This document shows, one piece after another, positions 5,225-5,992 of a stretch of DNA of 6,033 bases. The notes under the pieces were generated by a model that ran no database searches, was not told the DNA's origin, and saw only the letters and a program-made list of their open reading frames with translations. Position 1 is the stretch's first letter, and each line of letters opens with the position of its first letter. Location: positions 1-6,033 of the IMG/VR virus record IMGVR_UViG_2563366955_000008, one strand, 5' to 3'. The translations under genes and the position numbers were made by a program. Source of the DNA: a virus (taxonomy: Duplodnaviria; Heunggongvirae; Uroviricota; Caudoviricetes).

Positions 5225-5275
5225 TTTCGGGTCCTTTCCGTCGATCCAACAGGTTACGGGGCGGCGACCTCGCGG
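5225..5275. other. cos: cos site core (cosQ-proximal region plus cosN); 12-nt cohesive end GGGCGGCGACCT at 5259-5270 marks the ends of the mature virion DNA
   Basis: Sequence ...GGGTCCTTTCCGTCGATCCAACAGGTTACG / GGGCGGCGACCTCGCGGGTTTTCGCTATTTATGAAAATTTTCCGG is near-identical to the lambda right-end/left-end junction as I recall it. The distance from the cohesive end to the Nu1 start (188 nt) matches lambda (190 nt). Confidence 0.88.
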
Positions 5276-5304
5276 GTTTTCGCTATTTATGAAAATTTTC
5301 CGGG

Positions 5305-5321
5305 GAAAATCATGTCGGTAC
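5305..5321 (+). repeat. R3-like repeat (GAAAATCATGTCGGTAC), putative Nu1 recognition element
   Basis: Core CATGTCGG at 5311-5318, in the same position relative to cosN as lambda R3. Confidence 0.5.
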
Positions 5322-5368
5322 TTCTCGAACATAACTATTTGTTTTTTCTAATATCGAATCCGTAAAAG

Positions 5369-5386
5369 GTCCGACATGAAAACGCC
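5369..5386 (-). repeat. R2-like repeat in inverted orientation (minus-strand reads GGCGTTTTCATGTCGGAC)
   Basis: Plus-strand CCGACATG at 5371-5378 is the reverse complement of the CATGTCGG core. Confidence 0.5.
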
Positions 5387-5407
5387 TAAAAAAGTCATTT
5401 TCGGGCA

Positions 5408-5423
5408 CTTTCATGTCGGCCCC
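5408..5423 (+). repeat. R1-like repeat (CTTTCATGTCGGCCCC)
   Basis: Core CATGTCGG at 5412-5419, direct orientation, about 28 nt upstream of the Nu1 start. Confidence 0.5.
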
Positions 5424-5446
5424 TGTATTTATTGTGAGACTGTTTC

Positions 5447-5992
5447 ATGAAGGTTAATAAAAAGAAACTTGCCGAAATTTTCAACGTGGATCCGCGAACG
5501 ATTGAACGCTGGCAGTCTCAGGGACTCCCTTGCGTCTCCGGAGGTGGTAAGGGCGTTGAATCTGTATTTGATACCGCCATGGCAATTCAGTGGTATGCGC
5601 AGAGGGAAGCTGATATCGAAAATGAAAAACTCCGTAAAGAGGTTGAGGATTACAGGGCTGCCAGTGAGGCAGATCTCCAGCCTGGGACTATTGAGTACGA
5701 ACGCCATCGACTTACGCGTGCGCAGGCCGACGCACAGGAGCTGAAGAATGCCAGAGACTCCGCAGAGGTGGTGGAAACCGCATTCTGTACTTTCGTGCTG
5801 TCACGGATCGCAGGTGAAATTGCCAGTATTCTTGACGGGATCCCTCTCTCGGTACAGCGGCGTTTTCCGGAACTGGAAAACCGACATGTTGATTTCCTGA
5901 AACGGGATATCATCAAAGCCATGAACAAAGCAGCCGCGCTGGATGAACTGATACCGGGGTTGCTGAGTGAATATATCGAACAGTCAGATTGA
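5447..5992 (+). CDS. nu1: Terminase small subunit (Nu1 family), 181 aa
   Basis: Residues ~63-181 are almost identical to lambda gpNu1 as recalled ([60 protein letters not shown]...[43 protein letters not shown]). The N-terminal DNA-binding domain is clearly related but diverged ([36 protein letters not shown]). Confidence 0.95.

Follow-up and report, generated by a model that had tools for sequence, protein, structure and literature searches.

The window, by which we mean the whole stretch of 6,033 nucleotides that was analysed, ends with a cohesive-end site (cos), the gene of a small terminase (TerS), and the beginning of the gene of the large terminase (TerL) (Table 1). A chromosomal lambdoid prophage of E. 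coli, such as the one in strain MZ1211, matches it at 100% identity. The late genes follow in the order IraM, class II holin, YdfR-like ORF, lysozyme, Rz, TonB-C-domain protein, cos, TerS, and TerL start. The TonB-domain protein is encoded at the position where lambda carries bor, and with the IraM homologue it makes two host-interaction cargo genes in the prophage late region. At the left edge, positions 1-105 (+) match the 3' part of the Rfam sRNA family STnc100 (RF02076; 73.8 bits, against a gathering value of 47), cut by the end of the window. An ORF of 297 amino acids at 1440-2333 (+) has its DUF1327/YdfR match (1.3e-40) confined to the first ~100 residues; in RefSeq, the annotation covers only 1443-1778, as a truncated YdfR pseudogene, and the remaining ~185 codons are unannotated.

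Table 1. Features of the window and types of its diagnostic sites (21, phage 21).
Feature	Position	Strand	Remarks
IraM anti-adapter homologue	131-466	-	
Lysozyme	2370-2903		
Rz	3385-3858		
TonB C-terminal-domain protein	4115-4495	+	Small, lipoprotein-like; 48.7 bits
cosQ ("R4" in the phage 21 record)	5228-5239	+	CGGGTCCTTTCC; signal for the terminal cos cut; 12/12 in 21 and lambda
cosN cohesive end	5259-5270	+	GGGCGGCGACCT, read directly; identical in lambda, 21, and IdasGreatGrand
I2, IHF-like site annotated in phage 21	5288-5302	+	13/15 to 21; identical to lambda
R3 box (bases 50-65)	5308-5323	+	AATCATGTCGGTACTT; 15/16 identical to phage 21 R3
I1, putative IHF site between R3 and R2, annotated in phage 21	5330-5344	-	13/15 identical to phage 21 I1
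R2 box, inverted	5366-5381	-	AAGGTCCGACATGAAA on the + strand; 16/16 identical to phage 21 R2
R1 box	5409-5424	+	TTTCATGTCGGCCCCT; 15/17 aligned columns identical to phage 21 R1
CATGTCGG, three copies	5311-5318, 5371-5378, 5412-5419	+, -, +	Direct-inverted-direct, downstream of the cohesive end
CATGTCGG, fourth copy	5881-5888	-	Within the lambda-type coding part of TerS
TerS gene, Nu1 family, chimeric	5447-5992	+	181 aa; 21-type winged-helix domain and lambda-type oligomerisation/TerL-binding part
TerL gene start (GTG), lambda gpA type	5967-6033, off the window edge	+	Assigned through a 100%-identical locus (L004)
21-type specificity cassette	5304-5658 (~355 bp)	+	cosB and TerS codons 1-71
Junction zone	5639-5668 (30 bp)	+	Codons 65-74; 53-67% identical to either parental group
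Diagnostic sites, left	5259-5303		21-type 0, lambda-type 4, neither 0
Diagnostic sites, middle	5304-5658		21-type 111, lambda-type 15, neither 12
Diagnostic sites, right	5662-6006		21-type 4, lambda-type 132, neither 7

The cos site is complex and lambda-like, with cosQ and the 12-base cohesive end both identical to those of lambda and phage 21. The left end of the virion (base 1) falls at 5259, the start coordinate of the region described in the first-pass annotation. That annotation had reported three copies of a repeat in a direct-inverted-direct layout downstream of a lambda-type cosN, and they are found where it placed them. As in lambda-like cos sites generally, there are three R boxes, of which R2 runs in the opposite orientation to R3 and R1. 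Counted from the cohesive end, they begin at bases 53 (+), 113 (-), and 154 (+); the lambda values are 53, 114, and 154. In the whole window, CATGTCGG occurs 4 times against 0.20 expected, a count reached in 0 of 200 shuffles, and the extended boxes around it have TCATGTCGG in common. For the copy at 5881-5888 (-), the possibility of an internal rR2-like site, as described in phage N15, was weighed and rejected. Because lambda, which does not use the motif, has the identical sequence there in the alignment, this copy is a chance match. Promoter and terminator scans and an Rfam scan of the cos region returned nothing relevant. Two ORFs that cross cos, 5111-5365 (+) and 5186-5332 (-), are taken as spurious, as they would be split at cos in virion DNA; the former has no Pfam match. 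Its equivalent in the Escherichia phage IdasGreatGrand (L002:5860-6138) is annotated as a "hypothetical protein" CDS right across cosN, and is probably spurious as well.

TerS covers the whole of the Pfam profile Phage_Nu1 (PF07471; positions 1-164 of 164), with 302.6 bits against a cutoff of 30. Its residues 1-54 are identical at 50 of 54 positions to PDB 7LWR, whose sequence is that of phage 21 gp1, and residues 1-98 can be aligned to lambda TerS (6HN7). The window and phage 21 have the same recognition helix, with E20 and S24 where lambda has Q20 and E24, whereas the wing loop reads SGGGKGV in the window and SKGSKGI in phage 21. Over its whole length, the protein shares 65% identity with gp1 and 83% with Nu1. 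Over 5669-5966, the gene has a median identity of 96.6% to lambda-type genes and of 60% to 21-type genes. A full-length orthologue of phage 21 gene 1 is ruled out, since the C-terminal part, which in 21 binds gp2, is lambda-type rather than 21-type. TerL residues 1-128, read in the locus identical to the window, share 94% identity with lambda gpA and 63% with phage 21 gp2. The sequence matches place the TerS C-terminus and the TerL N-terminus in the same lambda type, and the two are predicted to pair.

Correspondence of the cosB elements with phage 21

Outside the lambda-type phages, the best partial match to the region is GenBank record M81255, the phage 21 head operon with its cos site annotated. 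This annotation was transferred to the window by a four-way alignment, which gives R3, I1, R2, and R1 in the phage 21 layout and at the same distances from cosN. By alignment, then, the repeat is phage 21's annotated R3/R2/R1 set and not a new cosB motif. The first-pass annotation was right that it differs from the CGTTTCC boxes of lambda, but missed that it is phage 21's own repeat, and the DNA-binding domain is phage 21's too. In M81255 itself, the binding of gp1 to the R boxes is labelled "putative."

Discrimination between lambda and 21 is set by bases 56 and 59 of R3 and by residues 20 and 24 of TerS (Feiss and co-workers, PMC4669245). In the window, base 56 (5314) and base 59 (5317) are both G, the 21 state, where lambda has T and C. 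With E20 and S24, the window is in the 21 state at all four published determinants. Base 54 of R3 is A in the window and G in phage 21. However, the R2 and R1 boxes of phage 21 carry CATGTCGG, so that the 21 protein already tolerates A at base 54 in two of its three boxes. The cosB spacers are 72-80% identical to those of phage 21, and the cosB of one 21-type relative (L281) is 96.5% identical.

The first-pass annotation had also proposed a search for an IHF site in the tract 5330-5360. There, AAACAAATAGTTA at 5332-5344 (-) matches the consensus WATCAANNNNTTR at 12 of 13 positions, at the place of phage 21 I1. The consensus by itself is at chance level, with 8 matches in the window against 6.5 expected, and what supports the putative site is the position it shares with phage 21 I1.

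Breakpoints of the mosaic and its parents

Identity to lambda is 100% over 5251-5290, lies between 45 and 68% over 5291-5568, and is again 95-100% between 5669 and ~5968, in keeping with the lambda-like Nu1 C-terminal part described in the first-pass annotation. The switches were located with 285 diagnostic alignment columns, each at least 90% fixed within its group and differing between the groups. These groups consisted of 52 distinct 21-type and 50 distinct lambda-type sequences from public viral contigs. The counts in the middle and right segments (Table 1) differ with p = 3e-51 in Fisher's exact test, and the best breakpoint by maximum chi-square is 5658|5662, between codons 71 and 72. 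On the left, the type switches at 5303/5304: all 4 diagnostic sites before it are lambda-type, and the first 21-type sites stand at 5304. The similarity to lambda does indeed end after TTTATGAAAATTTTCCGG (ending at 5304), as had been noticed. The exchange junction lies within nu1 as proposed, but past the end coordinate of 5620 that had been given for the region. Likewise, the N-terminus of Nu1 is diverged from lambda, but over ~71 codons rather than the ~60 residues estimated. The 21-type segment is thus an internal cassette, with cosN/I2 on its left and the TerS C-terminus on its right both lambda-type. Its right junction falls just past the solved DNA-binding domain of lambda TerS (1J9I, residues 1-68).

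The module breaks against both phage 21 and lambda, so that plain identity to one known phage with no breakpoint, which would have spoken against the swap, is not what the alignments give. From phage 21 the module differs in that TerS is lambda-type from about codon 72 (~60% nucleotide identity to 21 there), that the 4 differing sites in cosN/I2 are all in the lambda state, and that TerL is of the gpA rather than the gp2 type. Lambda shares the same overall cos architecture, and TerS residues ~75-181 are ~97% identical to it in DNA. Unlike lambda, the window has the R boxes of phage 21, and the DNA-binding domain is only ~61% identical in DNA. Alignments with both phages support the recombinational swap of cosB plus the Nu1 DNA-binding domain that had been suggested, of the kind known between lambda and 21. 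One could argue instead that there was no recombination, and that, starting from a lambda-like ancestor, cosB and the N-terminal part merely evolved at a higher rate, as DNA-binding domains and their targets can outpace the rest of a protein. The probability of this is practically negligible. An existing, independent 21-type lineage matches the divergent segment at 91-97% identity while the flanks are 96-100% identical to the lambda type, and the sharp switches at 5303/5304 and 5658/5662 refute it through the pattern of diagnostic sites. In addition, the same upstream DNA is found joined to other cosB/TerS alleles, with the break exactly at 5304.

Recombination being the reading retained, the junction zone gives some indication of its history. 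These 30 bp match 25 of 30 positions in the SCU-387-type TerS described below (counted by eye on the alignment), which hints at a third contributor to the mosaic. Lacking a match to either parent, the zone suggests a history with more than two lineages. The same junction is present in 14 of the 14 distinct hybrid sequences sampled, and this fits one ancestral exchange followed by spread. Judged by its sequence, the 21-type donor is not phage 21 itself but the sublineage with the wing SGGGKGV and the R3 TCATGTCGG, which is also known with a 21-type C-terminus, for example in L281.

Predicted packaging specificity and its natural distribution

The region is very probably the cos packaging-initiation site and TerS of a lambda-like E. 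coli prophage with the packaging specificity of phage 21. By recombination, a ~355-bp 21-type cassette would have been placed between a lambda-type cosN and a lambda-type TerS C-terminus. Because the TerS C-terminus and the TerL N-terminus are both lambda-type, the recombinant would have changed its DNA specificity with these two parts still matched. A model of its working can be proposed by comparison to lambda and phage 21. IHF would bend the DNA at I1, and a dimer of TerS DNA-binding domains would dock on R3 and R2 across the bend (PMC9026076, PMC4669245). Going by the genetics and structures of lambda and 21, the lambda-type C-terminus of TerS would then recruit and position the lambda-type TerL, which would nick cosN 12 bases apart before translocating the DNA. 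The phage is therefore expected to package 21-type cos DNA with a lambda-type TerL and lambda-type heads, and to discriminate against lambda-cos DNA. From the determinants and from the laboratory hybrid hy51, we infer that its preference in vivo for 21-cos over lambda-cos DNA would be more than 1000-fold.

This hybrid, lambda-21 hy51, comes from the Feiss laboratory; it combines cosB-21 with a chimeric 1/Nu1 gene on a lambda background, and is viable and 21-specific (PMC4669245, PMC9026076). It serves as the standard 21-specific helper (PMC4669245). The module in the window is its natural counterpart: in both, a 21-type cosB and the 5' part of gene 1 are fused to the 3' part of Nu1 and work with a lambda TerL, in the window by prediction. 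There are also differences. The window hybrid is natural and its junction at codons 71/72 comes right after the domain, while the gene in hy51 is roughly half and half. Its 21-type donor belongs to a sublineage that has diverged from phage 21, and with cosN/I2 of the lambda type, the 21-type DNA is an internal cassette and not the whole left end.

Two other readings bear on what the module does. One is that its specificity is distinct from canonical phage 21, the sublineage with SGGGKGV and R3 TCATGTCGG being not fully interchangeable with 21. The 21-type loci do fall into two sublineages by wing and R3 (77 and 19 loci), one proposal has the wing touching the minor groove on the 5' side of the major-groove contacts (PMC9026076), and the spacers are only 72-80% identical to phage 21. 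But the recognition helix is identical, the genetically defined discriminators at R3 bases 56 and 59 are in the 21 state, R2 is 16/16 identical, and phage 21 itself already has CATGTCGG in R2 and R1. With two lineages only, the association between wing and base 54 may be mere shared ancestry. We consider this reading unlikely, and there is a small chance that the wing, base-54, and spacer differences leave an altered affinity or specificity. It is less likely still that cos and TerS are an inactive relic of a decaying prophage and the mosaic an accident among cryptic prophages. The chromosomal prophage does hold pseudogenes (DUF1737 and YdfR fragments), and lambda-type Nu1 homologues (nohD, nohA) persist in the cryptic prophages of most E. 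coli genomes. Against this, an isolated phage, IdasGreatGrand, shares this cos and TerS at 99% identity, and the locus identical to the window continues with full-length TerL, head-tail joining, portal, and protease genes. In addition, 14 distinct hybrid sequences all keep the three R boxes, the reading frame, and the junction, and a laboratory hybrid of like design is viable (PMC4669245). IdasGreatGrand (PP925829.1) is 99.0% identical over 5228-6033, which includes cos, cosB, the chimeric TerS, and the junction. To the left of ~5230, however, its DNA is unrelated, and it has an anti-repressor gene in place of the TonB-like region.

We thus keep to a packaging module of predicted 21 specificity, and it is widespread. 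When 5,426 complete E. coli genomes were searched with a 161-bp junction probe, ~564 records matched it at 95% identity or more, among them O157:H7 strains and strain 536, and the exact TerS protein is found on at least 1,000 contigs. A literature search found no paper explicitly on a natural 21/lambda hybrid. The module is nevertheless already known, its components and its chimeric design having all been characterised earlier. The value as a discovery is small, given decades of genetic and structural work on the specificity of 21 and on chimeric 21/lambda small terminases. Even so, the module is a naturally occurring case that confirms the domain model of TerS, in which DNA specificity is N-terminal, TerL specificity is C-terminal, and the joint comes just after the DNA-binding domain. 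The presence of the hybrid in about one in ten complete E. coli genomes bears on the prediction of cross-packaging of prophages, cosmids, and chromosomal islands by helpers.

Domain and repeat types behind a common cosN

The pairing of domain and repeat was followed across 285 loci with a recognisable cosN and TerS, many of which are near-identical and therefore do not amount to 285 independent observations. A survey of genome contigs had yielded mostly lambda-type genes and lambda DNA contamination in unrelated taxa, with no added 21-type diversity, and viral contigs were used instead. Each type of DNA-binding domain occurs with its own repeat only, with 0 exceptions in the 285 loci, and the repeats take equivalent positions across types, except in the 169-aa type. 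Where the domain is 21-type, CRTGTCGG boxes are present in 97 of 97 loci (all three in 93), near bases 53 (+), 112 (-), and 153 (+); the motif is found in 0 of the 188 other loci. These loci comprise 30 distinct 21-type cosB sequences, and the recognition helix is unchanged in all 97. In the lambda type, 62 of 62 loci have CGTTTCC boxes among bases 53 (+), 114 (-), and 154 (+), with all three in 38. The 21-type domain is followed by a 21-type C-terminus in 82 loci and by a lambda-type C-terminus in 14, counts that are biased by the way in which loci were fetched. Since 21-type domains pair with both, the C-terminal type assorts separately from the domain type.

Within the 21 type, the wing SKGSKGI goes with R3 TCGTGTCGG in one sublineage (77 loci). 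In the second sublineage (19 loci), to which all of the hybrids belong, the wing is SGGGKGV or a close variant of it, and R3 is TCATGTCGG or GCATGTCGG. In the window, the positions that define the sublineages are 5528-5560 (TerS residues 28-38) and 5312 (R3 base 54). The association between wing and base 54 was not counted as covariation, there being only two lineages.

Behind the same cosN there are at least 4 repeat alleles: CGTTTCC, CRTGTCGG, YAGATCC, and CATGTCCGG. A wider reading, possible but doubtful, is that cosB and the TerS domain form a multi-allelic cassette whose exchange among lambda-like E. coli phages recurs at the same two edges: about base 45, where cosN/I2 ends on the right, and about codon 70, where the domain ends. 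Avoidance of cross-packaging, or of piracy by chromosomal islands that target TerS, might drive the diversification. Its weaker form would have only the sublineage of the window functionally unlike canonical phage 21.

The YAGATCC type is represented by E. coli SCU-387 (L006:6761-7490), with boxes at bases 53 (+), 113 (-), and 153 (+), and by 31 viral-contig loci. Its TerS has the recognition helix RTITAWQSQGL and a 21-like C-terminus, and the upstream DNA in SCU-387 is the same as window 1-5300. Its cosB repeats and first 36 TerS codons have 0 matches among 50,697 sequenced phage records, where the sole match of the type is a 95-bp stretch of TerS coding sequence in IdasGreatGrand. This repeat type was not found named in the literature examined, and the SCU-387 allele may represent an uncharacterised packaging specificity. 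A TerS of 169 amino acids (MATQTEVARHLSLTDRQLRRLQK...) stands behind the same cosN in E. coli strain 7/2 (L005:6760-7463), where the DNA is identical to window 1-5304 and breaks off exactly at 5304. Its repeats, CATGTCCGG, lie at bases 50 (+), 110 (-), and 140 (-), in a different pattern of orientation, and the allele is also found in PhiR12 phages at 95.6% identity.
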